Source of the DNA: a virus
DNA length: 64,000 bases
IMG/VR virus record: IMGVR_UViG_3300018432_000004
Location: 8,156 to 72,155 of that record
Strand: one strand, 5' to 3'
Each line of letters opens with the position of its first letter. Position 1 is the stretch's first letter. A program made the position numbers and the translations under genes. Shown in pieces: positions 818-61,380 of this stretch. The notes under the pieces were generated by a model. The model did no database searches and was not told the origin of the DNA. It saw nothing but the letters and a program-made list of their open reading frames with translations.

Positions 818-873
818 TCTCCGCTTGACTCCGAGACTACCCCGGCGCTACAGTGTGCGGCACAAGGCAACCC
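815..873 (+). promoter_or_regulatory. SigA-type promoter with conserved operator/leader motif (copy 1)
   Basis: TTGACT 825-830, 18-bp spacer, TACAGT 849-854, then GTGCGGCACAAGGCAACCC; TAGTCTC/GAGACTA inverted repeat (815-821, 833-839) around the -35. Confidence 0.8.
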
Positions 874-898
874 CCGCCCAGCACGAAGGAGCCGCAAG

Positions 899-1117
899 AT
901 GACCGCAGACCCCCTCTTCACCGCCCCGCAGACGATCCCCGGCCAGCTCGCGATGGCGACCGACCCCGTCGAGGTCGACGCGCACATCGGCGACGCCCGC
1001 AACGGCGCCACCGCGATGGACCGGCTGGAGGACGCGCTCGCCGCAGGCGTCCCGATCGCCGCTCTGCTCGCGGCGCAGACCGACCGGCACGCCGCGATGG
1101 GGTACCGCTTCTCATGA
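899..1117 (+). CDS. Hypothetical protein, 72 aa (moron gene 1)
   Basis: GAAGGAG RBS at 885-891; GC3-rich codons; coupled to the next gene by ATGA. Confidence 0.7.
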   Translation: MTADPLFTAPQTIPGQLAMATDPVEVDAHIGDARNGATAMDRLEDALAAGVPIAALLAAQTDRHAAMGYRFS

Positions 1118-1317
1118 GCGACTCCACGAACATCGCGCACGAGGTAGCCGAGGCGATGGCACGCGGCGAGGAGCATCTCGCCCGCGACCGCTTCGGCGAC
1201 GCGGCTGTCGACGCGGCGATCCGCGCAACCCTTGAGGCCGAGGGCTACGACTTCGACGCGTGCGTCCAGCACGCCAACGGATTCGACGGGCTCGCGGCCG
1301 GGCAGCCGATCCCGTAG
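1114..1317 (+). CDS. Hypothetical protein, 67 aa (moron gene 2)
   Basis: ATG overlaps the upstream stop; MSDSTNIAHEVAEAMARG...; C-terminal part of track ORF 853..1317. Confidence 0.7.
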   Translation: MSDSTNIAHEVAEAMARGEEHLARDRFGDAAVDAAIRATLEAEGYDFDACVQHANGFDGLAAGQPIP

Positions 1318-1361
1318 CATCGCGAACGCGTTCCTTCCGACGCGTTGTTCCGCCGACTCGC

Positions 1362-1395
1362 CCGAAGCCGTCGCGCCTGCCCGCGACGGCTTCGG
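1362..1395 (+). terminator. 14-bp perfect hairpin, probable terminator of the two-gene insert
   Basis: ccgaagccgtcgcg-cctgcc-cgcgacggcttcgg followed by cgcttct. Confidence 0.65.
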
Positions 1396-1420
1396 CGCTT
1401 CTCGACGTAGGCTTGTGCTC

Positions 1421-2239
1421 GTGCGAACTGAGACCGACGCCCTGCTCTCGCTCCAGCGGTTCGTCGCGGCGGCGCTCCCCGACTTCACAGAGGTCCTGAC
1501 GGAGGTCGAGAACGAGCGGCCCGTTCGCCCGTTCGCCGTCGTGTCCAGGGACGACGACCTCACGCCCGACGAGTTCCGGATCGCGCCCGAGGTGACGATG
1601 CCCGTCACGATCTACGCCTACGTCAAGGCGACCACGCGGACGCTCGCGCGCAAGGCCGCCGAGGACGCGAGCGAGCAGCTCTGGCAGGCGCTCCTCGTCG
1701 GCGGCGAGCGCAACCGCGAGCGCCTCGTGCCGCTGTTCGACTACGCCGGCCGACCCGCCGTGCAGCGCGTCCAGCTCGCCGGCGCCACGGCGGGCACCTG
1801 GACCCTCGCGCTCGACGGCGTCGAGTCCGACCCGCTCACCCCTCGAGCGCAGCCCCGCCTCGTGCGCCTCGCCGTCGAGCAGCTCGACCCCGCCTTCGTC
1901 GGCAACGTGTGGGTCTACGGCCGCCTCGGCGGACCGTACGACGTGCGCTTCGACCACGCGCTCCGCGGCGCGCCCGTCGACACGATGACCCTCGACGTCG
2001 GTGGCCTCACCGGGCCCGACCCCGCCGGGTCGATCGAGGTCCTGTCGGTCGGCGCCCCCGAGGCCTGGCGCGGCGAGCGCGACTGGATGCGCGTCGAGGC
2101 GCCCACCTTCGGTGGCCTCGTCGACCCGGACGATTCGCGCCGGCGAACCGTGACCGTCGGACTTCGGTTGACGTGGGGCCGATTCGGGCGTGTACGCTCC
2201 GGCGAGATGAAGCTCCGCACGATCGACCACAGGCTTTGA
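1421..2239 (+). CDS. Putative tail terminator protein with an inserted beta-rich domain
   Basis: GTG 7 nt after TAGGCT (1408-1413); located before the sheath gene; internal VQRVQLAGATAGTWTL..GNVWVYG..GGPYDVRF..LTG segment. Confidence 0.55.
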   Translation: MRTETDALLSLQRFVAAALPDFTEVLTEVENERPVRPFAVVSRDDDLTPDEFRIAPEVTMPVTIYAYVKATTRTLARKAAEDASEQLWQALLVGGERNRERLVPLFDYAGRPAVQRVQLAGATAGTWTLALDGVESDPLTPRAQPRLVRLAVEQLDPAFVGNVWVYGRLGGPYDVRFDHALRGAPVDTMTLDVGGLTGPDPAGSIEVLSVGAPEAWRGERDWMRVEAPTFGGLVDPDDSRRRTVTVGLRLTWGRFGRVRSGEMKLRTIDHRL

Positions 2240-2250
2240 GGAGGGCGCAC

Positions 2251-2622
2251 GTGTCCGACCACGACGAGGCCACCGACGCCCCCAGCGTTGAGGACCTGCG
2301 CGAGCGCGCGAAGGAGCTTGACGTTCCCGGCCGCTCACGCATGAACGGCGAGCAGCTCGCCGCAGCGATCGGGATCGCCGAGCGCAAGAAGGCCGAGGCC
2401 GACGCAGCGATCGCGCGCAGCACAAGCGACGGTCCCCGCGAGCAGAGCTTCCCCGTGTCCCGGCTGCGGTCTGACCCGGCCATCCTGGGCGGCGTCAGCC
2501 GCGCCACCCTCGCCGCCGCGCTCACCGACGCCGACGTCGGCGACGACGACGAGCTCACGCGGCCCGAGGTCGACGAACTCATCGAGCGCTCCCAGCAGCG
2601 CCCGGTCAACGAGGAGGCGTAA
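2251..2622 (+). CDS. Small protein with Rho-N/HeH-like motif
   Basis: GAGGAGG RBS; VEDLRERAKELDVPGRSRMNGEQLAAAI matches the Rho-N-like helix-loop-helix pattern. Confidence 0.65.
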   Translation: MSDHDEATDAPSVEDLRERAKELDVPGRSRMNGEQLAAAIGIAERKKAEADAAIARSTSDGPREQSFPVSRLRSDPAILGGVSRATLAAALTDADVGDDDELTRPEVDELIERSQQRPVNEEA

Positions 2623-2625
2623 CCC

Positions 2626-4125
2626 GTGGCGCAGCTACTCAACGCACCCGACGAGGAGATGATCCTTCCCGGCTCGGGGTTCTACTTCGAGGTCGACCAG
2701 CCGGCCACCTTCCCGGTCTCGGCGGGCTCCCGCGTGCTCGTGCCGTTCACGGCCAACTGGGGCCCGGTCAACGTCCCGGTCGTCCTCGCGAACTACCGCG
2801 AGTACGTCAACGGCGGCGTGCGCAACGGGCAGCGCTTCAGCGGCTTCGGCCCGGCCGACACGTCCGGGCGCCGTCGCGTCCTGCACGCGTTCCTCGGCGA
2901 GGGACTGCCCGGCAAGGGCGGCGCCGGATCGGTCGCCGCCGTCCGCATGGCGACCGCGGCGGCAGCGAAGGCCGCGCACACCTTCAACAACTCCACGCCG
3001 GCGCCCGCGTTGACGATCACGGCGCGCTACGAGGGCACCCGCGGCAACGGCTTCGGCTTCACGCACCGCCCCGGCGCCGAGGCCGGAACCGACGAGTTCG
3101 TGCTGATCGAGGGCGGCCGCGAGAAGGAGGTCTACCCCTACCCCGAGACGAACGTCGCGCAGCTCGCGGCGGACATCAACGCGACGACGACCTCGCTCAT
3201 CACGGCCGCGTCGGTCATCACGGGGGTCGCGCTCGCCGACGTGTCGAACGTGGCGCTCACCGGCGGCAACGACGGCTCCGGCCTGCTCGTCGGCGACTGG
3301 ACCGCGTTGTTCGACGCGCTCGCCTACGAGCCGTTCGGCGTCTTCGCCGCCGCCGGCCTGACCGACGCCGGGATCCTCGCCGCGCTCTACGCGTGGCAGG
3401 AGGAATCCGAGGCGCTCGGCAAGCCGTTCATGGTCGTCGAGGGCGGACCGGCCGCCGAGGGGTTCAGCGCGCACAAGACGCGCGCGACCGCCCGCAACAA
3501 CTCCAACGTCATCGTGTTCGGCACCGGCAGCATCGGCGACACCGTCCTCAGCGGCGACGGCACGGAGATCGTCATCTCCACGGCCGAGGCCGCCGCTCGA
3601 GTCGCGGGCGCGGTCGCGCGCCGCGGCGAGGCGCTCGACATGGTGAACGTCCGGTTCGCCGGCTGGCGCGCGATCGCCGGCGCCAACCGCTCGCAGGCCG
3701 AGATCGCCGCCTCGTCGGGGATGACGCTGCTCACCCGTGACGGCGACCCCGACGCCCCGACAAAGATCGGGCTCGGCGTCACGTCCTACTCCGTCGGCAC
3801 CCTCGAGCGTCCGCTGTGGCACTACTCCAACGTGAAGTTCGTCCGCACCGACCACGGGCTCGTGACCGACATCACGGCCGACCAGGAGTTCGGCGACCTC
3901 ATCGGCGAGATGGGCGTCGGCGAGCGCGCCCGCGACATCGTGCTCGGCCGCGCCACGGAGATCGTCGCGGAGCGCATCCGGCGCGGCATCCTGCAGCCGC
4001 GCACGACGGTCATGCTCGACCCCGACGTCCCGATCGACGACAACTCCGACGAGATCGCGCTGGCCTACGACGTGTGGGACGTTCGCGGCCTGCGCAAGAT
4101 CCGCAACCGCATCCGACTGCACTAG
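2626..4125 (+). CDS. Contractile tail sheath protein (XkdK-like)
   Basis: 499 aa; PGSGFYFE, VPFTANWGPVN, TARYEGTRGN, LTGGNDG, sheath-like C-terminus. Confidence 0.9.
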   Translation: MAQLLNAPDEEMILPGSGFYFEVDQPATFPVSAGSRVLVPFTANWGPVNVPVVLANYREYVNGGVRNGQRFSGFGPADTSGRRRVLHAFLGEGLPGKGGAGSVAAVRMATAAAAKAAHTFNNSTPAPALTITARYEGTRGNGFGFTHRPGAEAGTDEFVLIEGGREKEVYPYPETNVAQLAADINATTTSLITAASVITGVALADVSNVALTGGNDGSGLLVGDWTALFDALAYEPFGVFAAAGLTDAGILAALYAWQEESEALGKPFMVVEGGPAAEGFSAHKTRATARNNSNVIVFGTGSIGDTVLSGDGTEIVISTAEAAARVAGAVARRGEALDMVNVRFAGWRAIAGANRSQAEIAASSGMTLLTRDGDPDAPTKIGLGVTSYSVGTLERPLWHYSNVKFVRTDHGLVTDITADQEFGDLIGEMGVGERARDIVLGRATEIVAERIRRGILQPRTTVMLDPDVPIDDNSDEIALAYDVWDVRGLRKIRNRIRLH

Positions 4126-5729: not shown

Positions 5730-8700
5730 ATGCCAATCGCAACCGCCAGCTCGGCCTACGTCCTCGAGGACCGCGCGAGCCCCGCCCTGCGCGGCATCCG
5801 GCAGGAGGCGGTCCGTACGACGGCCGCGCTGCGGGGCACCGCCGACGCCGGCGACAAGATCGGCGCGCCCGCGCAGCTCCAGCGCCTCGAGCGCTTCGAG
5901 AAGCGCCTCGGGTCCGTAGCGCGCACGGCGGAGAACATGAGCGGGCGCGTACAGCGCACCGTCGGACACATGGAGGGCGTGATCCGACGCGACACGCTCA
6001 AGGCCGAGGCGCGCATCACCGCTCTCGGCGGGCGCATGGACGAGCTCGCGCGCAAGCGCGCCGCACCGCGCGTCGACCTGGACGGCTACGCGGTCACGCT
6101 CGCGCAGATCGCGAGCCTGGACCGCGCAATCGCCGCGCTCGGGCGCCGCACGGCCACGATGGGGGTCGGAACCACCGGCGGCGGCGCGGCGGCGGCTGCC
6201 GCAGGCGGCGCGGGCCGCGCCGCTGGCCGCTCCGGCGCGTTCATCGGCTCGGGCGGCGTCGGCTTCGGCACGACCAGGCGCGGCCTCATCGCCGGTGCGG
6301 CCGTCACGGCGCTGCCGGTCGTCAGCGCCCTCACGGGCACGATCCTTCCCCTCGCGGGGTCGCTGAGCGGCGCAACGGTCGCGGGGGGCGCCACAAGCCT
6401 CGCAGCCGGCGGCGCGCTCGCCGCCGGCATCGGCGCCGTCGTGTCGGTCGCGAAGCCCGCGAACGCCGCGGTCAAGGAGCTGCGCAAGGAGCAGGAGCGC
6501 TACACCGAGGCCGTCCGCGCGTACGGCCCGGCGAGCGAGCAGGCGCTCGAGGCGCAGAAGGCGCTCGACGCGCAGGTCCGCAAGTCGCCGGCGGGCGCGC
6601 GGAACCTCATCCGCGAGCTGGACGCGCTCACCGGCCGCTGGCGCCGCGTGACGCAGGCCGGCCAGACGGACATCCTCGGCCTGCGCGCCGGCGCCGCGCA
6701 GCGCGTGCGCTCGGCCTCCCCGTTCCTAGGCGAGCAGTCCAACCGCGCCGCCGGCGCCGTGCGCCGCGAGGGCCTCAACTTCACCGACTGGGCGACGAGC
6801 CCGGCGGGGCTCATCATCGTCCGCGACCTCACCGACGCGTTCGTCGACAACCTCGACGAGGCCGAGGGCACCCTGGAGAACATCGCCGGCACGTTCGGCA
6901 ACATCGCGCGGGCGTCGCGGCCGTTCTTCGACGAGGGCATGGACTTCCTCGAGCGCTGGACCGGCGGGTGGGAGCACTCAACCCGCGACATAGGTGAGAC
7001 GCGCCGAACGATCGGCGGCTACCTCAACGACCTCAAGGCGTGGGGACGACTCGGCGGCGCCGGCTTCGATCTGATCCGCGACCTCATCATGCCCGGCCGC
7101 CAGCAGGGCACGAGCGCCGTCGAGGACCTCACGATGCAGCTCCGCGAGTGGGACGACTGGGCGAAGCGCAACCCCGAGCGCATCCGCCGCTTCTACCGCG
7201 ACAGCATCGACGGCACGAAGGAGCTGGCCGGCTTCATCGGCGTCATCGCCCGCGACCTGCACGAGGTCGGGCAGCTCCTCCTGCCGATCCTCAGCCGCTT
7301 CGCGCAGCTCGGGCAGCTCGCCGGCGGCGCCGGCCTGCTGTTGCCGACGCTGCTGCGCCTCGGCCTCGGCCGCGCGATGGGCGGGCGCGGCGCCGGCGGC
7401 GGCGGAGCGGGAGGCGGAGCGGGAGCAGGCGGCTCCCCGATAATCGTGGGCGGTCCAGGACGGGCCGCAGGCGCCGCGCCGCGCACCGACTGGACCGGCT
7501 GGACCGGAGGCACCGCCGCGCGCCCGACGAGCAGGCTCGCAGGCGCCCGCCAGCGCGCCGTAGGCGGCGCGCGCTCGGCCGGACGGTTCGCAGCCCCGGT
7601 AGCGGGCATCTCGGGCGTGCTGGGCGCCGCGGGCACGCAGGGCGACCTCAACCAGCGCGTGCAGGGCGGCGTGTCGGCGCTCACGTTCGGCGCGCTGCGC
7701 GGGCCGACGACATCGGCGCAGGCGCGCGAGCAGGGCGAGGCGCGCGCGATCGGCGACGTCGAGCGCCTCAACGTCCCGCGCTCGCCTGCGGACTACCGCC
7801 GGCAGATCGCTCGCCTCGAGCGCCAGCGCGCGGCCGCGCGTGCGAAGGCGGGCCCCCCCGATCGTGCCGGCAGCATCGTCGACAAGATCCCGGTCATCGG
7901 CGGCGCGTCGAAGGCGATCGGCGACACATTCTTCGGCGACGACGAGGCGGAGGCGAGGCGCAACGCCGCGGCCGTCAAGAAGTACACGGCGGCGATCCGC
8001 GAGCTGCGCGCCGAGCAGCGCTCCTACCGCAACGAGCAGGACCGCCGGAAGGGCGTCGCGTCGCAGGCGCACGGCGGCGCGCTCGCCTCCAGCCTGCAGG
8101 AGGGCTTCGGCACGCTGCGCCGCCACGAGGGGCCCGAGGCAGCGCTGCAGCAGACCGTCGACAAGACCGTCGCGAAGATGCGCCAGATGCGCCCCGAGGG
8201 CGCGAAGATCCTCGGCGAGTCGATGCTTGAGTGGGGGCGCACGATCGCGCGCGGCAACCCCCGCATGCAGGCGATCGTGGCCGACATGACCAGCTCGATC
8301 GAGCGGCGCTTCGCGCGGATGGGCAAGCGCGTCGAGGTCGTCAACGGGCGCATCCTGACGGGCTCGCGGTCGGAGTGGCGGCAGATCAGCAACGCGCTGT
8401 CGATGCCCGCAGAGGAGGCGCAGCAGCGCGTCACGAAGGCGTTCACGGCGATTCAGCGCGAAGCGATCGGCTCGCTCAAGTCGATGGGGTTCAGCTCGTC
8501 GGAGGCGACGGCGATCGTCAAGGGCCGCGAGTCCGGCGGCGACAAGGGACGCGCCGCCGACTACGCCGTGAAGCAGGGCCCCGACAGCTACCAGGCCGGC
8601 GTGGTCGGCGGTCAAAAGGCGGGACCGCCGTCGGCGCCTAAGCGCGCGCGCGGCGGCCGGATTCCCGGTCAGGGCCTCGCCGACAAGGTCCCGTTCGGCG

Positions 8701-15585: not shown

Positions 15586-15625
15586 CGAGGACGCCTCGCT
15601 ATGAGGCGGCGTTAGGCTACGCGGC

Positions 15626-16591
15626 GTGACCCAGCACGTACCGCTCGCAGCCGGAGACATCGCCGTGGAGGCGTTTTTCGACGCCGTCCAAGAGATGCTC
15701 TCCGGGCTCGCCGTGAACTTCGAGGTCGTGCTGCTCAACAGCACGACCGTCGCCGTGCCAGCCGGCGTCGCCGCGTCGCAGGTTTCCGTCGCGATCGAGG
15801 GGCAGTACCGCTGGATCACGGTGCAGATCACGCGGGCGCATCCCGGTGGCGCGGCCGGGGTGTACGACCTCTACGTCACGGCGGCGGCGAACGATCCCGT
15901 CAGCGGCGCGCCCGCCGGAAACGACTTCTCGTTCGCGCTCGCCATCGTCCCGACGAACACCCTGCCCGCCGGCGTCGCCATCGCCCGGAAGATGCGCCGG
16001 CTGCAGTGGAGCGGGACGGAGATCACGCGGATCGACCGCCTCGACATCGAGCCCCCGCTGCGCCCCCCGCTCGTGACCGCTCTGCCCCTCCTGCAGCCCG
16101 TCGGCACCGAAATCGACCTTCAGACGGCCGCGATGGCGTCGGCGGGCGCCGGCCCGTGGCGCTACCGCCGCAACGCGGGCGGCTGGTCGGTCGTGAGCGC
16201 AGGCGCGGCCTGGGCGTCGCACCGCGACAGCCAAGACGTCCTCGTGGGTCCTGCCGCGGGCGCATGGACCGGGTTCGGTAGCGACCCGTCGGTAGTGGCG
16301 CCGATTGATGGTCACTACCGCGTCCATAGCGTCGCGCAGTTCCGCAACAACTTGGGCGCGCTCGGTGTTGAGATGGGGGTGCGCGTCGGCGCGGTCGATC
16401 CCTCGGGCCTGAACGGGACCGCGATGGGGCAGATACCCGCGGCAGACCAGTGGTGCTCACTGAGCCATGTGCGCACGCTGCTATCGGTCCCGGCCGGCAC
16501 GACGCTGAGCCAGCGCGTTCGATTCGCGGGCGCTACCGGCGTCGTCACGCGCATCGGCGCGGCCCTGATCGTCTCGCCGCTGCAGGCCTGA
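15626..16591 (+). CDS. Putative tail fibre/receptor-binding protein
   Basis: Last gene of the tail block; GTG 7 nt after TAGGCT; beta-rich C-terminus (VAPIDGHYRVHSVAQF) with visibly more A/T-ending codons. Confidence 0.6.
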   Translation: MTQHVPLAAGDIAVEAFFDAVQEMLSGLAVNFEVVLLNSTTVAVPAGVAASQVSVAIEGQYRWITVQITRAHPGGAAGVYDLYVTAAANDPVSGAPAGNDFSFALAIVPTNTLPAGVAIARKMRRLQWSGTEITRIDRLDIEPPLRPPLVTALPLLQPVGTEIDLQTAAMASAGAGPWRYRRNAGGWSVVSAGAAWASHRDSQDVLVGPAAGAWTGFGSDPSVVAPIDGHYRVHSVAQFRNNLGALGVEMGVRVGAVDPSGLNGTAMGQIPAADQWCSLSHVRTLLSVPAGTTLSQRVRFAGATGVVTRIGAALIVSPLQA

Positions 16592-18389: not shown

Positions 18390-18440
18390 CCGCTCGGCGA
18401 AGCGTCCAGGTATCGGCGGTCTGCTGCTGTACGCTGACAC

Positions 18441-18545
18441 GACGACGACGCACGGTTCCTCCGGTGCAAGGGGTTGCTTCGGCAAGGCCCGCGTCGTCGT
18501 CTCCGGTACGCGCCGGTCCCGTCGCCTTCGGGCGGCGGGACTAGC
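18441..18545 (+). ncRNA. Candidate ~100-nt structured small RNA
   Basis: TACGCT at 18430-18435; 11-bp stem 18441-18451/18491-18501 enclosing a ttgc-TTCG-gcaa hairpin; second cUUCGg hairpin 18516-18541. Confidence 0.5.
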
Positions 18546-18562
18546 GCCCGCAGGTTCCCCGC

Positions 18563-18585
18563 GCTACGGTTGCCAGCGGCAACCC
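18563..18585 (+). promoter_or_regulatory. Variant of the promoter/leader motif upstream of the Bet-like gene
   Basis: GC-TACGGT-tgccagc-GGCAACCC, then GGAGG RBS. Confidence 0.6.
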
Positions 18586-18601
18586 ACCACCGGAGGACCG
18601 C

Positions 18602-43729: not shown

Positions 43730-45651
43730 TCGGCCGCGGTCCGTCCACCGGCCTCGGGCGCATCTTCGACCCGCCAGCAGCCTCCGACGTCGAGGACGAG
43801 CTACGGCAGGCGTGGGCGGACGACTCGCGCGAGCAGGGCGTTCAGGTCGCGAGCGCCGACACGTTCCTCGACTTCTCGGCCGCGGTCCCCGAGCCGAAGC
43901 GCCCGCTGGACCTCGACCGCTTCCGCTTCCAGCGCGAGCTCTACTCCGACGCCGGCGAGGTCGCGGCGCTCATCAGCGTGATGAAGGCCGCGCAGATCGG
44001 CGTGTCGGCGTGGCTCATCCGCTGGGCGCTGCGGACCGCCGACCGGGGCGCCACGACGCTCTACGTCATGCCTCGCGAGCGGCAGGCGACGGAGTTCTCG
44101 ACGCTGCGCCTCGGGACCGTCATCCAGTCGAGCGAGTACCTCCGCGGCAGGCAGGACCTCCGCCGCACCGCGAAGTCCGACACCAAGCGCCTCAAGTCGA
44201 TCGGCGACGGCTTCCTCGCCGTCCGCGGGTCGAAGTCCGAGGACGAGCTCGTGTCGGTCGACGCCGACGCCCTCGCCCTCGACGAACTCGACCGGCTCGT
44301 GCAGAGCAACCTGCCGCGCGTCATGCAGCGCGTAACGGGCCCGCTCGCGTGGAACGTCGTGCGGCAGGTCAGCACGCCGACGATCCCGAACTACGGCATC
44401 GCGTCGGCGTTCGCCGACTCAGACCAGCGCCGCTGGACCGTGCGCTGCGGCGGGCTCGAGGGCTCGCGCAAGGCCGCGGGCGGCTGCGGGAAGTGGCACA
44501 CCCTCGGCGGCATCGAGACGTTCGCGACGCTGCTCGACTACGAGGACGCGATCCTCAACCGCGCCGGCCAGCAGGTCGGCGGCCCGCCGATCGTGCTGCG
44601 CTGCGACGACTGCCGCCGCGAGATGGACGTCCGCGAGGGCGAGTGGGTCGCCACGTTCACCGACGGGCAGCGCCCCCGCGGCTACCACGCCCCGAAGTTC
44701 GTGGTGCCCGGCGTCAACCTCGCCGGCGTCGTGCACCGCTCCCGCGCCACGAAGGACAAGGCCAGGCGCGCCTTCCACAACGAGGACCTCGGCGAGGCGT
44801 GGCAGGCGACGAACGCCGGCCTCACCGACGAGCAGATCGCCGCCGCCGTCCGAGACTACGACATGACCGGGCAGGGCTACATCGGATCCAACCCCGTCAC
44901 GATGGGGGTCGACGTCGCCGATACCCGCGGCCTCAACGTCCGCATCTCCGAGCACCTGAGCGAGCACGAGAAGCGCGCGATCTGGATCGGGATCGTGGAC
45001 GACGGCCTCGCGCCCTGGGGCGCCACGACCGGCAGCGCGCACGAGATCCTGTCGGAGATCATGCGCCGCTTCCGCGTCCGCATGGCCGTCATCGACCACG
45101 CGCCGGGCGGCCGCCTCACGCGCGGATGGTGCGAGCTGCACTACGGCCGCGCCTACCGCGTGCAGTGGTCCGACAACCAGCGCGCCGTCCTCACCCGCAC
45201 CGACCCGAAGGGCGACCCGACGAAGCTCGTCGCCCGCTACTACGAGGGCATGGACGCGACGCTCGACCTCATCCGCCAGCAGGCCAACCTTCTGCCGAAG
45301 CACCGCCCCGAGAGCTACGACCGCGACCTCAAGGGCCGCGTCCTGCTGGAGGTCGAGATCGAGGAGGACGAGTCCGCCGCGCCGGAGCGGCAAGGCGGCG
45401 CGAAGGTCGGCGAGCTCGTGCAGCGCTGGATCAAGGTCGGACCCGACGACTACCTGCAGGCCGAGGCGTACGATGTCATCGCCACACACATGATGTACGT
45501 CCACCAGGCCGGCGGGCAGATCGCGGCGCAGGACGGCACGATCGTCGCCGGGCGCTCGACGGACGTGCAGCGCACCGGCGACAGCTACCGCCAGCGCGAC
45601 GACCTGGACTACACCGCAGGGCCACCCGACGAGCCCCTCGGCGGATGGTAA
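43726..45651 (+). CDS. Terminase large subunit (GpA-like ATPase plus nuclease)
   Basis: VMKAAQIGVS, TTLYVMP, ALDELDRL, VSTPT, CxxC pairs, TMGVDV nuclease motif. Confidence 0.9.
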   Translation: MIGRGPSTGLGRIFDPPAASDVEDELRQAWADDSREQGVQVASADTFLDFSAAVPEPKRPLDLDRFRFQRELYSDAGEVAALISVMKAAQIGVSAWLIRWALRTADRGATTLYVMPRERQATEFSTLRLGTVIQSSEYLRGRQDLRRTAKSDTKRLKSIGDGFLAVRGSKSEDELVSVDADALALDELDRLVQSNLPRVMQRVTGPLAWNVVRQVSTPTIPNYGIASAFADSDQRRWTVRCGGLEGSRKAAGGCGKWHTLGGIETFATLLDYEDAILNRAGQQVGGPPIVLRCDDCRREMDVREGEWVATFTDGQRPRGYHAPKFVVPGVNLAGVVHRSRATKDKARRAFHNEDLGEAWQATNAGLTDEQIAAAVRDYDMTGQGYIGSNPVTMGVDVADTRGLNVRISEHLSEHEKRAIWIGIVDDGLAPWGATTGSAHEILSEIMRRFRVRMAVIDHAPGGRLTRGWCELHYGRAYRVQWSDNQRAVLTRTDPKGDPTKLVARYYEGMDATLDLIRQQANLLPKHRPESYDRDLKGRVLLEVEIEEDESAAPERQGGAKVGELVQRWIKVGPDDYLQAEAYDVIATHMMYVHQAGGQIAAQDGTIVAGRSTDVQRTGDSYRQRDDLDYTAGPPDEPLGGW

Positions 45652-45671
45652 GGTCGCGCCCAAGCAACCCC
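45649..45671 (+). promoter_or_regulatory. Variant promoter/leader motif
   Basis: TAAGGT-cgcgccc-AAGCAACCCC. Confidence 0.55.
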
Positions 45672-47995: not shown

Positions 47996-48273
47996 CGGCG
48001 TTCGCGCTCGCGGCGCTCGGGCTCGTCGCGGGCGCCGGCCTCGGGATCTTCGTCACGCGGCGGCTGCACCGCCGCGTGGGCGGCTGGGGCGCCCGCCTGG
48101 GCCGCTCGCGGTTCCGCCGCGCGAACCTGCCCGTTGGGGGCTCGTGCACGCTCGTGCTGACGCTGACGCTGCCGACGCCGGGCGTTCTCGTGCCGGTGCT
48201 GCTCGGCGCCTCGGCCGCCATGGCGGCGACGGCGATCGGCTGGCGCTACGTCGACCCGCTCCCACCCGCTTAG
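47992..48273 (+). CDS. Membrane protein
   Basis: About three hydrophobic segments. Confidence 0.6.
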   Translation: MTAFALAALGLVAGAGLGIFVTRRLHRRVGGWGARLGRSRFRRANLPVGGSCTLVLTLTLPTPGVLVPVLLGASAAMAATAIGWRYVDPLPPA

Positions 48274-48328
48274 TCTCACGTTGCGTCGAGACTGGCGGAG
48301 CGCTACACTGTGCGGCACAAGCAACCCC
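48271..48328 (+). promoter_or_regulatory. SigA-type promoter with motif (copy 6)
   Basis: TTGCGT 48281-48286, 17-bp spacer, TACACT 48304-48309, gtgcggcacaagcaacccc; TAGTCTC/GAGACT around the -35 as in copy 1. Confidence 0.8.
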
Positions 48329-48351: not shown

Positions 48352-48816
48352 ATGATCGTTTCCGCCGTCATCCCCGACGCCCGCAAGCACAAGCGCTCGA
48401 CCGAGTACGTCTGCTACGTCCGCGACGGTGCCCGCGTGGACGTCCTGCGCAGCAGCGACCCCGACAGGCTTGAGCGCGAGCGCGCGCACCTGCTGGCCGA
48501 GGGCGCGACGGTCGACGGCGCGACCTCGCCGAGCCGCGAGCTGACGCCCGAGCAGGCGTCGTTCGCGCTCCGCCTCGCCGACGAGTTCGACACGGTGAGC
48601 GCCGAGCTTCTCCCCCTGCGCGGGCGGGCCATCGTCCACGGCACCAACGACGCTGGCGATCAGCGCGTCTGCCTCGTCTTCGCCGACGGCGACGCGGTCA
48701 CGGCCGACGCCGACGCCGACGGGCGCGTCGTCAACTGCTCCGCATGGGAGCGCAGCCACCTCCTCGCGGAGTGCGGCGCGGCGACGCGGCGCGACGGCTG
48801 GCTGTTCGTCGACTGA
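48352..48816 (+). CDS. Hypothetical protein
   Basis: GAAGGAG RBS; 154 aa. Confidence 0.7.
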   Translation: MIVSAVIPDARKHKRSTEYVCYVRDGARVDVLRSSDPDRLERERAHLLAEGATVDGATSPSRELTPEQASFALRLADEFDTVSAELLPLRGRAIVHGTNDAGDQRVCLVFADGDAVTADADADGRVVNCSAWERSHLLAECGAATRRDGWLFVD

Positions 48817-55567: not shown

Positions 55568-55607
55568 CGCGAACGACACGACGCCCAGCGGCGGTACGCT
55601 GCCCGGC

Positions 55608-56192
55608 ATGGCTACCAGCTCCGCGAGGCGCGCCGACGCGACATGGCCCGCCGACTCCGCCCTCGTCGCGCTGGCCGCTCAGCACGGCAGCATGTCGGCC
55701 GTCGCCCGAGCCTGCGGGCGCAGCCGCGAATCGCTGCGCGACTTCCTCGCAATCCGCCCGGCGCTCGACTGCACCGTGCGCGCGCACCTTCGGCCACGGC
55801 TGACGCCCGAGCAGGCGAAGTCGAACGATCGCCGAGCCAAGCGCGAGTACCAGGCCCGACAGCGTTGCGAGGACCCCGACGAAGTCCGTCGGCAGCGCCG
55901 CGAGTCATGGCACCGCACGACGACGCCCGAGCGCCGCCGGGCGGGCAACCTCCGAACCCGCACCGCGAGGGCGCACCTCGTGCCCGCCGAGGCCGACTGG
56001 CTGCGCGTGCTCGCGCTCGACCCCTGCGCCTACTGCGGCGCGTCCTGCGCGGAGGTCGACCACATCATCCCGGTAGTCAGCGGCGGCGACAGCTCGCCCG
56101 AGAACCTGACCGCATCCTGCCTGCCATGCAACCGCGGGAAGAACGCGCGCCCCCTGCTCGTCTTCCTCGCCGACGAAGGGCGCCCCCAGTGA
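55608..56192 (+). CDS. HNH endonuclease with N-terminal HTH
   Basis: ATG 7 nt after TACGCT; CAYCG..VDHIIP..GG..NLTASCLPCNRGK. Confidence 0.9.
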   Translation: MATSSARRADATWPADSALVALAAQHGSMSAVARACGRSRESLRDFLAIRPALDCTVRAHLRPRLTPEQAKSNDRRAKREYQARQRCEDPDEVRRQRRESWHRTTTPERRRAGNLRTRTARAHLVPAEADWLRVLALDPCAYCGASCAEVDHIIPVVSGGDSSPENLTASCLPCNRGKNARPLLVFLADEGRPQ

Positions 56193-58861
56193 CCACGAGT
56201 TCCGCCAGCCTCGATCGTTCGCCGAAGTCCAATTGGGTGCAGGAGGCCGGCGGGCTGCCCCCGTACGTCCGCAAGATCGCCCGCGCGATCCACGAGAAGC
56301 GCGGGATCCCGCTGTCGCAGGCGATCCCGTTCGCGATCGGGCGCCTGAAGAAGTGGGCGGCAGGCGGCGACAACGTGACCGCCGAGACGCAGGCGAAGGC
56401 CGCGGCAGCGATCGCGGCGTGGAACCGCCTCAAGTCGAAGGCCGGGAAGCTGACCGAGGCCGAGGCGCTCGGAGGCGTCCAGGTCCGCGACGAGAACCTC
56501 GGCGTGCCGACCCCGCTGCTCCTCGCGTGGATCGACGAGCTCGACGACGCCGAGCAGCTCGTCGAGGCGGCGCTCGGCGGACACGACGAGAAGCTGCACC
56601 CCCGCGACCTGCTCGGCCGGTTCCGCACGAAGGTCGGCGCGCTGAAGGTCGGCGAGTCGGCAACACTGCCGGACGGCCGCAAGGTCGTCAAGACCGACCG
56701 CAAGGCGTTTGAGGGCGACAACTACCACGACGTGTACGACGAGAACGGTCGCATTCAGGCCAGCCAATCAAGCGCTCGGCTGGCGGCGGATTCAGCGGCG
56801 ACACGCAGCGCGCAGTCCACCGACCCCAAGTCGCTCGGCGGCGCGACGAAGTACCGCAACCTCGACGCCTTGCCGGCGAAGTCGGATAGCAAGCCCGTCC
56901 GCGACAGCCCGGCCGGCTCGGGGAAGTCGTTCGCCGAGGGCGTGTCGGCGGCGTACAACGCGAACGCCGCGAACGCCGCGAAGGCGAGCCGCCCCGAGGG
57001 GGCATCCGACGAGCGCGAGCGGGCTCGGGCGTACCAGGCGCTCGACCCGCTCAAGGTCGGCGACTCCGCGAAGTGGGGCACGCTGACCGTCAAGCGCCTG
57101 CCGGACGACTCGCAGGGCCGCGCGCAGTTCGACGTGGACGGCAAGACGATGGGCGGCTCACGGACGATCTCACGCATGGTCGAGAAGGGGCGCGCAACGG
57201 CGACCCCCGCCCGAGCGAACACCCCGAGCGCAGACCCGGCCACCCGCCGACGCAACCGGACGACGGGCACGGTGCCGAAGTCGCAGAAGGGTGGCCCGGC
57301 GGCGGGGGGGCTGGACACCACGCGCGGCATCTTCCGCAAGTACGACGACGCCGGCCTGCTAGTCGCGCTCCGCGACCCGCAGCTCCAGGGAAAGAATCGT
57401 CGGCAGGCGGAGCGGGAGGCGCGCGCCCGAGGGCTCATCTCGGAGGACAAGACGCCGCCGCCGGGCGCGATCGTCCGTGGCAACAAGACCTACATGCCCG
57501 GCGATCCCGACTACGAGCGGCTGAGCAAGATCGTCGGACCGCCCGAGCCGGGAAGCCCGGCCGCGCGCAGCATGGCGAAGGTCGGCCAGACGGCCGGCGC
57601 ATCCGCCACGGTGCACGAGGGCAGGACCGTCAAGGCGGGCGACAAGGTGATCGTCGGTGAGCCGGGCAACGTGACCCGCGACGTGACCGCGACCGTGACG
57701 AAGATCGAGGGCGGCAAGGTCCACGTCAAGGGCCCGCACGGCACGAGCTCGCACGATCCCGCCGACGTCCAGGCCACGAGCACGAGCGCCAGCGCCGCCG
57801 CCGCCGCCGCAGACCTGCGGCAGCAGCTCAAGCGCGTCAACGCGACGCTCAAGTCCGGGAAGGGCCCGCAGGCGTACGCGAGGCGCCGCAAGGCCGAGAT
57901 CGAGCAGCAGCTCGCCAAGCTCGTCGAGGCGGCGACCCCGCCGACCCGCGTCAACCTGCGCACGAAGGGCGGGCGCATGGTCAACGTGTCGGTCGCGCAC
58001 GCCCGCCGGATCCACCTTCAGGGCAACGCCGCGGCCGATCAGCGGCCGGGCGCGAAGCCGCCCGCTGGCGCCCGCGACGGCGACTTCGAGTCGAAGCATC
58101 CGCGCGGCGGCAAGGGCTCGACGTCGGGCGGCAAGTTCGTCAAGAAGGGCAGCACCGGGACCGAGGTCCGTGCGATCCAGCGCCGCGTCGGCGCCCGCGT
58201 CGACGGAGCGTTCGGCGACAAGACGGCTGCGGCTGTCCGCGCCTTCCAGCAGAAGCACGGCCTCAAGGTCGACGGCATCGTCGGCAAGCAGACCGTCGCC
58301 GCGCTCCGCGGCCGCCGCGACGCCAAGCGCGTCGGCACCGGCGAGCTGACGAAGAAAGACCGCGAGTACCTCGCAGGCCACATCAGGGGCACCGGCCGCC
58401 AGACCCGCGGCAAGCTCACCAGCCTCGTTGAGGCCGTCACCCCGCCGCAGTTCCTCGAGCGCGTCCAGGCGCTGCAGCCCGGCGAGATCGCGCGGCTGCC
58501 CGACGGAGGCGCCGTCAAGCACCACAAGTCCGAGGACGGCCGCGACCTCTGGACCGCCGGGCGCCCGACGTCCTACGGCGAGAACGGCCTGAGCTGGCGC
58601 GAGCAGCACCGCACCCCCGAACTCGCCGTCGCGGACGCTCTGAGCGCCTCGGCGGGCTCGACGGACCCCGCGTCGCTCGGCGGCCCGAACCGCTTCGGCG
58701 GCTACACCCGCATCGCCGTCAACGGCCGACCCGCCCGCTTCGTCGGCGTGGACGCGAACTGCTCGCCGCTCGTGCGCTACGACGGCGCGAGCGTCGAGCC
58801 CGTCGCGGTCACGTGGCCCGAGCTCGTGCTCGCGCCGCGCCTCGTCGAAGCTCACCGCTGA
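56189..58861 (+). CDS. 890-aa modular head-associated protein with peptidoglycan-binding domain and internal repeats
   Basis: N-terminal NWVQEAGGLPPYVRKIA..KKWAAG domain; two HPR..G(R/K)F motifs; PGBD (GTEVRAIQ..VDGAFGDKT..FQQKHGLKVDGIVG). Confidence 0.8.
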   Translation: MTTSSASLDRSPKSNWVQEAGGLPPYVRKIARAIHEKRGIPLSQAIPFAIGRLKKWAAGGDNVTAETQAKAAAAIAAWNRLKSKAGKLTEAEALGGVQVRDENLGVPTPLLLAWIDELDDAEQLVEAALGGHDEKLHPRDLLGRFRTKVGALKVGESATLPDGRKVVKTDRKAFEGDNYHDVYDENGRIQASQSSARLAADSAATRSAQSTDPKSLGGATKYRNLDALPAKSDSKPVRDSPAGSGKSFAEGVSAAYNANAANAAKASRPEGASDERERARAYQALDPLKVGDSAKWGTLTVKRLPDDSQGRAQFDVDGKTMGGSRTISRMVEKGRATATPARANTPSADPATRRRNRTTGTVPKSQKGGPAAGGLDTTRGIFRKYDDAGLLVALRDPQLQGKNRRQAEREARARGLISEDKTPPPGAIVRGNKTYMPGDPDYERLSKIVGPPEPGSPAARSMAKVGQTAGASATVHEGRTVKAGDKVIVGEPGNVTRDVTATVTKIEGGKVHVKGPHGTSSHDPADVQATSTSASAAAAAADLRQQLKRVNATLKSGKGPQAYARRRKAEIEQQLAKLVEAATPPTRVNLRTKGGRMVNVSVAHARRIHLQGNAAADQRPGAKPPAGARDGDFESKHPRGGKGSTSGGKFVKKGSTGTEVRAIQRRVGARVDGAFGDKTAAAVRAFQQKHGLKVDGIVGKQTVAALRGRRDAKRVGTGELTKKDREYLAGHIRGTGRQTRGKLTSLVEAVTPPQFLERVQALQPGEIARLPDGGAVKHHKSEDGRDLWTAGRPTSYGENGLSWREQHRTPELAVADALSASAGSTDPASLGGPNRFGGYTRIAVNGRPARFVGVDANCSPLVRYDGASVEPVAVTWPELVLAPRLVEAHR

Positions 58862-58895
58862 CAGCCGCCACGAAGCAGGGCGTAGACTCGCCCGC

Positions 58896-60833
58896 ATGGC
58901 CGTCTTCTCCCGATCCAACCTGATCGCGACCGGGTACACGCAAGACCCGCTCCGCGCGGCATCGCAGGGCCACGACCCCTACGACTGGGCCCCGCACGTT
59001 CTCCGCGGCGCGCTCGAGGGCAACGCCGTGCTCAGCTTCGACGAGGACGAGGTCGAGAATCTCGTCGCGTCGTGGCTCCTGACGCCGGAGGTCGAGGAGG
59101 ACGCCGACGAGCTCGCCGGCTATCGCGCCGTCCTGCTCGCGCCCGGGGAGGATCCCGAGGACGGCGACGTGTTGTTCCGCGACGGTGGGCGATGGATCGC
59201 GCAGCCTGGCGGCGATCCGGTTGCGATCGCGGGGACCCTGGCCAGCTTTCAGACGCAGCTCGAAACGATGGAAAGCGGTAGCGCGTGGGATGACGCCGAC
59301 GACGGCCTCGTGCTGACTATCGACGCTGGCATTCCGGCCTGGCGCACCCCGCCGGCCCCGGCCGCTGCGCTCGCTCTCGCCCCGGCCACGTCGGTCCGCA
59401 ACACGATCCAGGCATCGGCCAACGTCCGCGGCTTGACGATCACCCCGAACGCCGGCCAGAACTTGGGGACGGAGGAGGTCTTCCGCGTCAACGGCCGTGT
59501 GGCTGGCGCGACGGCTGGTGGGATGTGGGCTGACGCGCTGGGCAAGCTGCACGTCCAGGGTGATGCGTCGGACACGGCGGGTGTCATCAATATGTACACG
59601 CTCACCGAAGCGCGACCCGGTGGTGGCTACTTCCGTCCCGGCATGGAGTGGCACTTCGGAAAGCCGCAGGCGCTTCGCGTCGGCGCGCTCAGCACCGGGC
59701 CGGCGGGCGCTCATACGCCGCGCTGGCAGTGCCCGGCGGGCGACGTGACGGACTCCCACGGCCTCGGGCCGGGAAGTCGCATGGACGCGCTCAACGGTCC
59801 TGGATTCAGCAACAACGGCTTCGGCGATCTCGTACTCGCGTACCGCATCGACCCGTACGACCAGGCCAAAAGCCAGGACATCATCTACATCCCGGACGAG
59901 CGAGACTCACGAGTCGGCATCCATGACAACTACCCGACAGCGACGCTCGACGTTGGGCATCGCTCATGGGTTGGACGTACGGCCGGGATGCGGCTCAACA
60001 ACACCACCGCTGCGCCGGGCTGGCTTCTGTCGCTTGCGGAGACGGGCTCGCACAAGGGCGGGTTCTACTCGGCGGGCAACGGCTTCCCGAAGCTCGCGGT
60101 TGGGCACGGTGCTGTCCCGACGTTTGAGGTCGACGTGCTCGGCACCGTCTCGGCCGACATCTTCCAGCCGCGCAATCTTCAGTCGGGCTTCTCGGGGGAC
60201 ACCAACTACCCACGCATCTCCTCGACGGTGTCAGGTGGGGCGTATCCGTTCAGCGCCACCGGAAACCTCGTACTGCGCGCACGCGGATCGGTGGGCAGCG
60301 CGACAGCAGACATCGTGCTCGCGTTCGGGCAGACGCCGACGCCGGGCCTTGTGCTCGGCGGGCCGTCTGGCGCGAACGTGCCCAACCTCTACCTGTTTGG
60401 TGCGAGCCCCGCGGACAACACGACGCCCGGTAACAGCGTGATCGTTGCGAAGAACTCGACGGCGAGCCCCGCCAACGCGGGAGCCACATCGCGCCCGGTG
60501 GGCTCCATGTTTATGTGGGCTGTGGGCTCGACGATGCGATTCATGGAGCCCGCCGGGTCGGTGGTGCAGATCGGAAACGTCGGCCTTGCGTCCGGCTCGG
60601 GCATCGGTTTCACCGCATACGGAACGCACACGCAGGATGCGAAGATCGGCCGTATCGCGGCGGGCGTCCTCGAGACCGACTCGATCATCCGCTACAACGC
60701 CGCCGCCTCATGGCAGACGACGGTCGGCGCGGCGGGCGCGGCGAGCGCGCTCCCGGCGACCCCGAGCAAGTACCTCAAGGTCCGCGACGAAGCGGGCACG
60801 TCCTACGTTGTGCCCGCCTACGCGGCGGCATAG
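58896..60833 (+). CDS. Orphan fibre/spike-like virion protein
   Basis: ATG 7 nt after TAGACT; Gly/Ser/Thr beta-rich body; C-terminal AGAASALPATPSKYLKV..YVVPAY; atypical codon usage. Confidence 0.6.
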   Translation: MAVFSRSNLIATGYTQDPLRAASQGHDPYDWAPHVLRGALEGNAVLSFDEDEVENLVASWLLTPEVEEDADELAGYRAVLLAPGEDPEDGDVLFRDGGRWIAQPGGDPVAIAGTLASFQTQLETMESGSAWDDADDGLVLTIDAGIPAWRTPPAPAAALALAPATSVRNTIQASANVRGLTITPNAGQNLGTEEVFRVNGRVAGATAGGMWADALGKLHVQGDASDTAGVINMYTLTEARPGGGYFRPGMEWHFGKPQALRVGALSTGPAGAHTPRWQCPAGDVTDSHGLGPGSRMDALNGPGFSNNGFGDLVLAYRIDPYDQAKSQDIIYIPDERDSRVGIHDNYPTATLDVGHRSWVGRTAGMRLNNTTAAPGWLLSLAETGSHKGGFYSAGNGFPKLAVGHGAVPTFEVDVLGTVSADIFQPRNLQSGFSGDTNYPRISSTVSGGAYPFSATGNLVLRARGSVGSATADIVLAFGQTPTPGLVLGGPSGANVPNLYLFGASPADNTTPGNSVIVAKNSTASPANAGATSRPVGSMFMWAVGSTMRFMEPAGSVVQIGNVGLASGSGIGFTAYGTHTQDAKIGRIAAGVLETDSIIRYNAAASWQTTVGAAGAASALPATPSKYLKVRDEAGTSYVVPAYAAA

Positions 60834-60842
60834 GGAGAGGCC

Positions 60843-61046
60843 ATGCAGACCCTCGTAATCCCCAAGCCCAAGCCCACCGATCCCGTGGTCACGATCCACG
60901 GCCACGATGGACCGGCGATGGTCACCATTCGACGCGATGGCGTCGTGGAGTTCGGCGAGGACTACGACCTGGCCGAGGCTGCGCGACTCTTCTGGGAGGG
61001 CGTCGCGCAGCACATGCCGAGCGAACTGACGTGCGAGAGCGCATGA
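60843..61046 (+). CDS. Small hypothetical protein
   Basis: GGGAGAGG RBS; 67 aa. Confidence 0.65.
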   Translation: MQTLVIPKPKPTDPVVTIHGHDGPAMVTIRRDGVVEFGEDYDLAEAARLFWEGVAQHMPSELTCESA

Positions 61047-61309
61047 CCCCGCCGAAAAAGCTGCGCCTGCTGAAGGTCGTCGTTCAGCCCACCTTCGTCC
61101 TCGACGACGGCAAGACGCTCACCGAAGTCTCGGCCGAGCCCGTGGTCGTGCAGCCCGACGACTGGCCCACCTACGCCACCGGCCGCTTCGCCGAGAGCGT
61201 CGCGGCCTACGAGGCGCAGGTCAACACGCCGGCGCAGGAGAACGGGCAGCCACCAATCACGAAGAAGCAGCGCGCCGATCGTGCGCGGTCAAAGCACTCC
61301 GCCGGATAA
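61043..61309 (+). CDS. Small protein, possible fibre chaperone
   Basis: ATGA coupling; LKVVVQPTFVLDDG..; position after the fibre-like gene. Confidence 0.5.
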   Translation: MTPPKKLRLLKVVVQPTFVLDDGKTLTEVSAEPVVVQPDDWPTYATGRFAESVAAYEAQVNTPAQENGQPPITKKQRADRARSKHSAG

Positions 61310-61357
61310 TCGGCTGAGTTAGTCGCGAGGACTTCCCGCACCCTGCGCCCGTTTCAC

Positions 61358-61380
61358 GCTACGCTGTGCGGCGCAACCCC
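61358..61380 (+). promoter_or_regulatory. Promoter/operator/leader motif (copy 7)
   Basis: gctacgctgtgcggcgcaacccc. Confidence 0.8.

Follow-up and report, generated by a model that had tools for sequence, protein, structure and literature searches.

The 64,000-nucleotide (nt) stretch of DNA analysed here (the window) covers positions 8156-72155 of the IMG/VR record IMGVR_UViG_3300018432_000004, a phage genome of 73,616 bp with direct terminal repeats, and carries a short repeated element in which a promoter-like hexamer, TAnnnT, is followed by the box GCAACCC. The element recurs on the coding strand, between genes or at gene ends, with an architecture that is maintained throughout a family of related viruses. 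A complement of the box is conserved in one gap of these genomes, within a segment that folds, and box and complement vary together between lineages. On balance, we consider it probable that the sites constitute a regulon of promoters with a common mRNA leader, which would be controlled by an antisense small RNA (sRNA) of the phage; the promoter-plus-conserved-leader part of this model, taken separately, is well supported.

A sequence-only reading of the window had listed seven near-identical copies of the element and three looser variants. All seven copies were found at the positions given, and the variants proved to be genuine sites, in which a -10-like hexamer is followed after 8-9 nt by GCAACCC(C/A). 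The aligned copies yield the consensus GCTA[C/G][A/G][G/C]TGTGCGGC[G/A]CAA; CCCC follows immediately in four of them and beyond an extra G(G)CAA in the other three, so that GCAACCCC is present in all seven. With at most one mismatch, the 12-mer core TGTGCGGCRCAA has eight matches, all on the + strand, compared with 0.71 expected, and none of 100 shuffles reaches eight. In the complete genome, the 19-mer GCTASRSTGTGCGGCRCAA occurs seven times in the forward orientation, always within the window, and never in reverse, and a control pattern has no matches; for GCAACCCC there are 14 forward copies and one reverse copy, with 1.5 copies expected per strand. A blind count singled out GCAACCC as the most enriched intergenic 7-mer, with 12 of its 18 copies located in the intergenic 5% of the genome. 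Every one of the seven copies is intergenic or overlaps an upstream stop codon, in agreement with the placement originally proposed, and a start codon with a GGAG-type ribosome-binding site (RBS) lies 38-52 nt downstream. An eleventh site, at genome position 187 and thus outside the window, has a looser form like that of the three variants (6-9 GC-rich bases before GCAACCC). The sites in the window are given below, with G000 denoting this phage, G001-G003 three near-complete IMG/VR genomes retrieved with a generalised motif pattern, and L-numbers further contigs.

847-874 (+): copy 1, long-spacer form, GC-TACAGT, 12-nt spacer GTGCGGCACAAG, then GCAACCCC.
25237-25259 (+): copy 2, 7-nt spacer, before a 56-amino-acid open reading frame (ORF) and then a 100-amino-acid HTH_17-like protein.
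27562-27584 (+): copy 3, 7-nt spacer, before Ku (27606-28592); kept before Ku in G001, G002 and G003.
32497-32519 (+): copy 4, 7-nt spacer, before HARE-HTH (32545-33555) and the HerA-like ATPase.
36998-37024 (+): copy 5, 11-nt spacer GTGCGGCGCAA, before a 128-amino-acid ORF (37037-37423).
48302-48328 (+): copy 6, 11-nt spacer GTGCGGCACAA, before a 154-amino-acid ORF (48352-48816).
61358-61380 (+): copy 7, 7-nt spacer, before the H2TH_5/mIHF-like protein (61408-61761); kept in G001, G002 and L009.
18563-18586 (+): variant, GC-TACGGT, 8 nt, GCAACCCA, before the RecT-like protein (18602-19795); kept in G001, G002, G003 and L082-L087.
19793-19815 (+): variant, TAGAGT, 9 nt, GCAACCCC, opening a 443-nt gap.
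45649-45671 (+): variant, TAAGGT (shared in part with the stop codon of the terminase gene), 9 nt, GCAACCCC, before a 59-amino-acid ORF.

The motif regulon covers structural as well as non-structural operons. The claim that every copy precedes a non-structural unit does not hold for copy 1, where a 72-amino-acid ORF (899-1117) is followed by the tail-sheath/tail operon, nor for copy 6, where the 154-amino-acid ORF leads into the block of SEC-C, transglycosylase, portal and head genes. The listing of Bet among the units behind a full copy also needs correction, in that the RecT/Bet-like gene stands behind the variant at 18563. The GCTAG of copy 2 overlaps the upstream stop codon. In the gap opened by the variant at 19793 (19793-20238), no ORF with convincing codon bias begins within 75 nt of the site, which has an orthologue in G001 and G002; this gap may give rise to a second non-coding transcript or hold a set of very small ORFs.

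Portal homologues of 42-74% identity led to five contigs (L009, L010, L012, L013 and L014, of which L009 is part of a 79-kb record), a comparison set without P0002, the closest portal relative (74%). All five carry sites and, since they were picked by portal homology alone, an artefact of motif searching is excluded. G001-G003 have 5, 3 and 12 coding-strand copies of TAnnnT-N7-GCAACCC, none on the opposite strand and no match to the control pattern; with a spacer of 5-13 nt allowed, 56 non-redundant sites were collected from nine genomes and contigs, 54 of them on the main coding strand and the remaining two in front of minus-strand ORFs. The architecture of the sites is G-C-TAnnnT, a spacer of 7 nt (or 11-12 nt), GCAACCC, 10-20 nt, RBS and start codon, and sites are retained before orthologous genes despite diverged flanks, namely, before Ku in four genomes, HARE-HTH in three, the RecT-like gene in three to four and the mIHF-like gene in four. 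In L009, one site stands directly before a large head-associated protein. The shared 5' leader postulated by the sequence-only reading is supported, since 15 related genomes and contigs all conserve GCAACCC, and do so only on the coding strand. The 7-nt spacer follows a loose consensus, nTGnnGC, with GTGCGGC, CTGTAGC, CTGAGGC, TTGCAAC and CCGTCGC found across genomes and copies; in this phage it reads GTGCGGC in seven of seven copies, and such identity within a genome suggests recombinational homogenisation of promoter cassettes. Among 185,579 bacterial and archaeal species genomes, the composite motif had eight single matches in unrelated phyla, which is the chance level, and pointed to no host or prophage. 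Searches for relatives with alignments of the RecT-like protein gave none in two scans of metagenome contigs and only G001 and G002 in a scan of viral contigs. One further IMG/VR match to the 19-mer, on a contig of 45% GC without any similarity to the phage, was discarded as fortuitous.

The housekeeping sigma factors of mycobacteria and Streptomyces recognise a -10 element TANNNT with a weak -35 element NTGACC, and leaderless mRNAs are common in these bacteria (PMC6448022, PMC4895711). The TANNNT rule is obeyed by all seven copies and by the 56 family sites. Positions T1, A2 and T6 were fixed by the search, and the conservation of note concerns the others: a G occupies hexamer position -2 in 53 of the 56 sites, a C position -1 in 49 and the hexamer begins with TAC in 46. 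Inner hexamer positions vary across sites (C/G/A/T, A/G/C, G/C), leaving T1, A2 and T6 as the only invariant ones, and together with the upstream G this sustains the earlier assignment of the hexamer as a -10 element. Outside genes, 53 of 72 coding-strand copies of GCAACCC have TAnnnT 5-13 nt upstream (2.4% by chance) compared with 1 of 16 inside genes, and box and hexamer are thus tightly coupled. A TTG-containing -35 hexamer was recognised at only about 11 of the 56 sites, with TTGACx at 17-19 nt in a subset. A consensus promoter scanner, run blind to the motif, has a single sigma-70-like hit in the 64 kb, and this hit is copy 1 (TTGACT-18-TACAGT, 825-854).

The predicted transcription start, the G of GCAACCC, is calibrated by sites of a leaderless type, which place ATG or GTG 6-7 nt after the same kind of hexamer:

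15613-15628 (+): leaderless-type site, TAGGCT, 7 nt and GTG; internal calibration of the spacing between -10 and +1.
55595-55610, 58878-58898 and 62967-62981 in the window, 7456-7471 of the genome, and ~14205 and ~20336 of L009: other leaderless-type sites, TAnnnT, 6-7 nt and ATG/GTG.

These sites stand before structural and other genes and represent a second promoter class that is devoid of the GCAACCC tag. Within the tagged class, 16 long-spacer sites have 11-12 nt between hexamer and box, which corresponds to the usual 7 nt plus RYAR(N) (GCAA, ACAA(G), ACAGA or GTAA(G)); at these sites the start would be unchanged and the box displaced 4-5 nt into the transcript. With its position tolerated to this extent, the box is unlikely to be contacted by RNA polymerase at a fixed point. 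The median length of the predicted leaders is 29 nt, and their folding is poorer than that of shuffled controls (mean z = +1.27); in most of them the box is unpaired, and it does not sequester the RBS. Given this lack of structure, the box is best viewed as a single-stranded, C/A-rich 5' tag rather than a structured element. A model with a structured leader, or with one that sequesters the Shine-Dalgarno (SD) sequence, was also considered, and is rejected because the leaders are less foldable than shuffled controls. Within the window, U-tract terminators of the canonical kind are no more frequent than expected by chance, and no intrinsic terminator can therefore be recognised before the motif copies. 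At a few places, GCAACCC lies 10-25 nt before an RBS and start codon without an upstream -10 element (positions 40658 and 10115 of G003 and 58074 of G002, in reverse-complemented copies, and 11937 of L012), a hint that polycistronic RNA, too, may be a place of action for the box.

The candidate reader of this tag is located in a gap of 212 nt (18390-18601) that separates the lysis genes from the RecT-like gene. In this gap, the sole reverse-strand GCAACCCC of the genome appears on the + strand as GGGGTTGC (18470-18477). A single reverse copy is close to the chance expectation genome-wide (1.5) and, for this reason, the anti-leader was assessed by comparison, across 10 related genomes.

18428-18545 (+): candidate anti-leader sRNA, -10 TACGCT at 18430-18435, predicted +1 near 18443, RNA of ~100 nt.

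Its predicted fold consists of an outer stem around an apical hairpin, which presents CAAGGGGTTGCTT (18467-18479), complementary to the leader box (leader-box complement, CAAGGGGUUGC), and of a terminal hairpin at 18516-18541. All 10 genomes sampled, namely the four whole genomes and six contigs selected solely through RecT homology, have an anti-leader in this gap, and it is the most conserved block there; five of the contigs have CAAGGGGTTGC, and the most divergent one has CAAGGGGTTGA. Upstream of it, each of the 10 gaps has a single TAnnnT, mostly GGTACGCT. The 10 predicted RNAs share one architecture, with an outer stem near the predicted +1, an apical hairpin (typically GCAA[GGGG]UUGC) and a strong terminal hairpin, and fold z-scores range from -2.9 to -5.4 in seven of them, the other three having been folded only to 150 nt. 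In G003, the terminal hairpin is a canonical U-tract terminator. The window (18542-18550), G001 and L084-L087 instead have a conserved (A)CUAGCG(C) after the terminal hairpin, in place of a U-tract. RNAalifold on MAFFT alignments recovered the apical hairpin only, with the outer stems out of register, and a covariance model was used instead. This model finds one match per genome, at 50-73 bits compared with at most 27 bits elsewhere; as the nine sequences matched had served to train it, the finding is informative only with respect to copy number. In the model-based alignment, 82.9% of cells are paired as opposed to 25-61% in slid registers. One of the double-sided changes, from G-C to U-A in the apical stem of L087, keeps the pairing.

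The candidate sRNA is complementary to the leaders over longer runs than to shuffled ones. Against the sRNA of their own genome, all of the 10-14 leaders form 8-12 contiguous Watson-Crick pairs, compared with 4.7 for shuffled leaders, and the duplex energies are about -25 versus -16 kcal/mol for shuffled leaders; among the copies in the window, copy 4 has the longest match (GCAACCCCTTG, 11 nt). The leader GCAACCCC of G000-G002 is accompanied by the anti-leader GGGGUUGC, whereas in G003 14 of 14 sites read GCAACCCG and the RNA reads CGGGUUGC. Consistently, in a cross-genome matrix the G003 RNA pairs over 8.4 nt with its own leaders and 7.0 nt with those of the others, and the reverse also holds. 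Matches in the flanks are partly genome-specific; for instance, the long-spacer leaders of G001, CAAGGCAACCCC, pair over 12 nt with GGGGUUGCCUUG.

Under the combined model, host RNA polymerase with a housekeeping factor of the sigma-A type would read the promoters through G-C-TAnnnT, an extended -10 element that is seldom accompanied by a -35 element. Transcription would begin 7 nt after the hexamer, which corresponds to the G of GCAACCC except in long-spacer sites, where it is the R of RYAR(N). Most leadered phage mRNAs would then begin with an unstructured GCAACCC(C), 10-20 nt before the RBS. The phage sRNA (~18443-18545) could pair over 8-12 nt with the box at the 5' end of these mRNAs, so that the whole set would be co-regulated post-transcriptionally, whereas leaderless phage genes would escape its control. 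The effect that we favour is the masking of a C/A-rich 5' element within the ribosome footprint, which would lower translation or stability as the sRNA accumulates; alternatively, the sRNA might protect the 5' end from 5'-dependent RNases. The model predicts that the lineages with GCAACCCA, L012 and L013, carry the anti-leader UGGGUUGC.

Several points weigh against this model. The start sites, the production of the sRNA, its pairing in vivo and the direction of its effect are all predicted from sequence. Without a general -35 element, the strength of the promoters with unaided sigma-A is uncertain, and the identity of spacers within a genome is left unexplained by the combination of promoters and sRNA. 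The co-variation of leader and anti-leader is mainly one lineage event, that of G003, and a change in the specificity of a protein fits it equally well; moreover, the G003 RNA is not recovered by the covariance model, and its homology rests on position and architecture. As to the fold, covariation is modest, with four double-sided changes, a number reached by 115 of 500 shuffles, and the nine aligned sequences are related and their alignment is fitted to the model. L087 has an uncompensated change at the first position of the box and its partner (C opposite A). Finally, the UUGC half of the anti-leader is predicted to lie in a stem and not in the loop.

In the main rival reading, GCAACCC is an asymmetric DNA site for a monomeric protein of phage or host, be it a stoperator-like repressor, a roadblock or an activator, and the inverted copy in the gap is one more such site. 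In its asymmetry and its strict orientation along transcription, the box is like the stoperators of Cluster A phages (PMC9283540), all G003 sites including the inverted copy have changed together, as expected for an altered protein specificity, and the phage encodes several small helix-turn-helix (HTH) proteins, including the HTH_17-like protein of 100 amino acids and HARE-HTH. In addition, GGGTTGC directly upstream of the -10 element forms an inverted repeat with the box at three promoters (50230 in G001 and 52647 in G003, in reverse-complemented copies, and 17775 in L013), whose own GCAACCC box lies 25-35 nt downstream; these repeats are compatible with the DNA-site reading or with hairpins in read-through RNA. 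We nevertheless regard a protein-binding site as unlikely. A DNA site would have no need of the conserved stable hairpin whose tip carries the inverted copy, nor of the dedicated -10 element, the terminal hairpin and the compensatory stem change, and the complementarity extends past the core in a genome-specific manner, up to 11-12 nt. Furthermore, the box shifts by 4-5 nt relative to the -10 element in the long-spacer class, and each of the 10-14 sites goes with a -10 element, whereas stoperators are dispersed over short intergenic gaps. Neither a stoperator-type repressor nor an integrase, partition or other lysogeny gene was found in Pfam and PHROGs sequence scans of ~70 proteins, a fold-level search for remote homologues not having been made.

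Still less likely, in our judgement, is that the start region or leader acts by itself, as a promoter escape sequence or as a C/A-rich translational enhancer or standby site, with the complement in the gap being coincidental or of local structural significance only. Selection for unstructured leaders is in line with such an explanation, the few arrangements of GCAACCC, RBS and ATG without a -10 element hint at a role linked to translation, and C/A-rich 5' elements act as enhancers in other bacteria. Identical cassettes could have spread by recombination, since the phage has a RecT-like protein, a PD-(D/E)XK nuclease and Ku. However, this explanation does not account for an exact complement being the most conserved block of a non-coding gap in all 10 genomes, nor for the complement following the G003 variant: the number of reverse copies is about that expected by chance genome-wide, but their placement in one 200-nt gap in every genome is not.

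The sequence-only reading had itself proposed coordinated control by one dimeric factor, bound to a pseudo-palindrome, TGTGC-G-GCRCA, across the start site of all copies. In this phage the dyad is perfect in two copies and scores 4/5 in the other five, and HTH proteins are encoded right behind two copies. In every relative (46 sites), the score falls to 2-3/5, which is what the fixed bases alone contribute, and the spacer varies freely while the -10 element and the box stay; as the spacer differs in the relatives and the dyad is absent from them, the pseudo-palindrome is a by-product of the spacer of this genome. The half-site centres are only 6 bp apart, which is atypical of HTH dimers. We consider such an operator very improbable. 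The idea of coordinated control survives, without a conserved dyad to which a dimer might bind, and the antisense sRNA is the best candidate for the regulator, ahead of an HTH dimer. A better candidate operator for a dimeric regulator, confined to a subset of the promoters, is the repeat (T)AGTCTC-N10-12-GAGACT(A), two copies of which lie in the window:

815-839 (+): inverted repeat TAGTCTC-N11-GAGACTA, surrounding the -35 element TTGACT of copy 1 (825-830); candidate operator.
48271-48293 (+): inverted repeat TAGTCTC-N10-GAGACT, surrounding the -35 element TTGCGT of copy 6 (48281-48286).

Five of the seven GTCTC-N8-14-GAGAC repeats in the family fall exactly on the TTGACx -35 element of long-spacer promoters, two in this phage and three in G002 (52223, 65996 and 67382 of the reverse-complemented copy). 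The left arm of the repeat at 815-839 takes in the upstream stop codon, and as an RNA hairpin the repeat would be weak (-6.5 to -9.2 kcal/mol).

Least credible of all is a promoter for a phage-encoded RNA polymerase or sigma factor of the T7-like kind, which the near-identity of ~20 bp (a conserved block of 19-27 bp) across the start might recall, as in promoters of single-subunit polymerases, but which is at odds with the free inner bases of TAnnnT and the upstream G, a signature of the sigma-70-family -10 element, with the TTGACx -35 element at 17-18 nt of some sites, and with the lack of any polymerase or sigma-factor domain among the ~70 phage proteins scanned, all large ones included, where the sole sigma70_r4 match is a sub-threshold HTH on an HNH endonuclease.

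The remaining gene content is that of a complete IMG/VR viral genome, as judged from the record, with a G+C content of 73%. An analysis of G+C at third codon positions by frame places essentially all real genes on the + strand. By annotation, this is a contractile-tailed phage, with tail sheath, tail proteins, portal, terminase and major capsid protein, and its non-structural genes encode Ku, HARE-HTH, the HerA-like ATPase, the RecT-like annealing protein, a PD-(D/E)XK nuclease, DNA methyltransferases and an actinobacterial-type IHF. There are at least four DNA methyltransferase genes, three of the N6/N4 type and one of the C5 type (29341-31209 and 35637-36995 of the window; 1719-3353 and 71100-73616 of the genome), and the C5-type gene reaches the contig end. 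UDG-like and RNase H-like (RVT_3) proteins are also encoded. The methyltransferases, together with Ku, the RecT-like, HerA-like, UDG-like and RVT_3 proteins and the nuclease, amount to a heavy investment in DNA modification and repair. In a protein of 1072 amino acids encoded in the head block (55643-58861 of the window), a PG_binding_1 domain is present and the similarity to endolysin PHROGs is confined to residues ~730-909; instead of a lysis enzyme, this may be a protein that is ejected and degrades the cell wall. The window has neither tRNA nor tmRNA genes, and no Rfam family matched there at gathering thresholds. An actinobacterial host is indicated for this uncultured phage from soil by the high G+C content and by the presence of Ku and the mIHF-like protein. 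There is no close relative among deposited phages: megablast with 13 kb matched only a 100-bp methylase segment, a tblastn search with the terminase returned distant matches only, and a terminase-based search for related loci found none.

More tentatively, a single riboregulator might govern nearly the whole phage transcriptome, as a timing switch made of RNA only that distinguishes tagged (SD-led) from untagged (leaderless) genes, with tag and reader forming a lineage-specific code; we rate this extension as possible but doubtful. If it is correct, tag and reader co-evolve, as GCAACCCC/GGGGUUGC versus GCAACCCG/CGGGUUGC would illustrate, and this could keep related co-infecting phages separate in their regulation. 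Gene timing in actinobacteriophages is poorly understood and, to our knowledge, repeats of the start-associated sequence (SAS) type in Cluster K have been without a known reader since 2011. The present family offers a testable pair, namely a tag predicted at the 5' end of 10-15 units and a structured RNA complement, in 10 genomes. Should the model hold, it would furnish an exceptionally clear example of a phage that regulates its genes throughout the genome, at the post-transcriptional level, by means of its own sRNA, in a host group little studied for sRNAs, and would provide compact, orthogonal promoter-leader-sRNA parts for high-GC bacteria. Even without the sRNA, a promoter grammar is defined for a family of uncultured contractile-tailed actinophages, comprising an extended -10 element, no -35 element, a conserved start region and a parallel leaderless class.

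Several known systems invite comparison. The sites share with promoters of T7-like polymerases a conserved block of ~20 bp through the start site, repeated before operons, but no polymerase gene was found, the upstream half is a sigma-70-like -10 element and the spacing between the halves varies (7, 8-9 or 11-12 nt). The sites resemble actinobacterial SigA/HrdB promoters, in which the -35 element is weak or absent, in that only T1, A2 and T6 of the hexamer are constant, a G lies upstream, TTGACx is present at 17-19 nt in a subset, the leaderless-type phage genes use the same hexamer and 7-nt spacing, and the sites are intergenic and co-directional. By contrast, host promoters have no sequence in common at +1 to +8, whereas GCAACCC is invariant in the phages down to 42% portal identity; the phage hexamer is also narrower than needed (TAC in 46 of 56) and the spacer is identical within a genome.

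With regard to the sRNA, GcvB-type multi-target sRNAs mask C/A-rich 5' elements, and the phage antisense RNAs P1 c4, P4 CI, N15 CB and P22 sar act in trans on repeated leader sites. The candidate described here likewise has a conserved G/U-rich stretch complementary to C/A-rich sequences before the RBS of many mRNAs and, like the phage RNAs, would be a phage-encoded regulator of the phage's own transcripts with short repeated targets. Unlike the antisense RNAs of P1 and P4, which act at one or two sites in a single immunity operon, its predicted targets are the 5' ends of 10-15 units throughout the genome, structural operons included. The probable host is an actinobacterium, and Hfq-type sRNA regulation is not the norm in actinobacteria.

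Two groups of phage repeats can also be compared. The SAS and extended SAS (ESAS) of Cluster K mycobacteriophages (Pope et al. 2011; PMC3203893) lie 3-7 bp from the start codon, have an SD core AGGAG and occur before non-structural genes only; binding of an RNA or protein was suggested, and none was identified (PMC3203893). Like the sites of the present family, they are short, asymmetric repeats in one orientation, in 11-19 copies before a subset of genes, conserved across subclusters ahead of different gene families and absent from the host genome, and in both systems a subset has an additional upstream inverted repeat. However, the box described here lies 19-35 nt before the start codon, apart from the GGAG RBS and at a fixed spacing from a -10 element, its motif also heads structural operons, and a candidate complementary RNA is present. 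The stoperators of Cluster A are asymmetric sites for a monomeric repressor of the L5 gp71 type, with an orientation that follows transcription (PMC9283540). They resemble the sites of the present family in being asymmetric, at most ~13 bp long, numerous, in one orientation and located in short intergenic gaps and at promoters, but here no stoperator-type repressor or lysogeny module was found, each site is coupled to a -10 element and the one inverted copy sits in the gene of a structured RNA.

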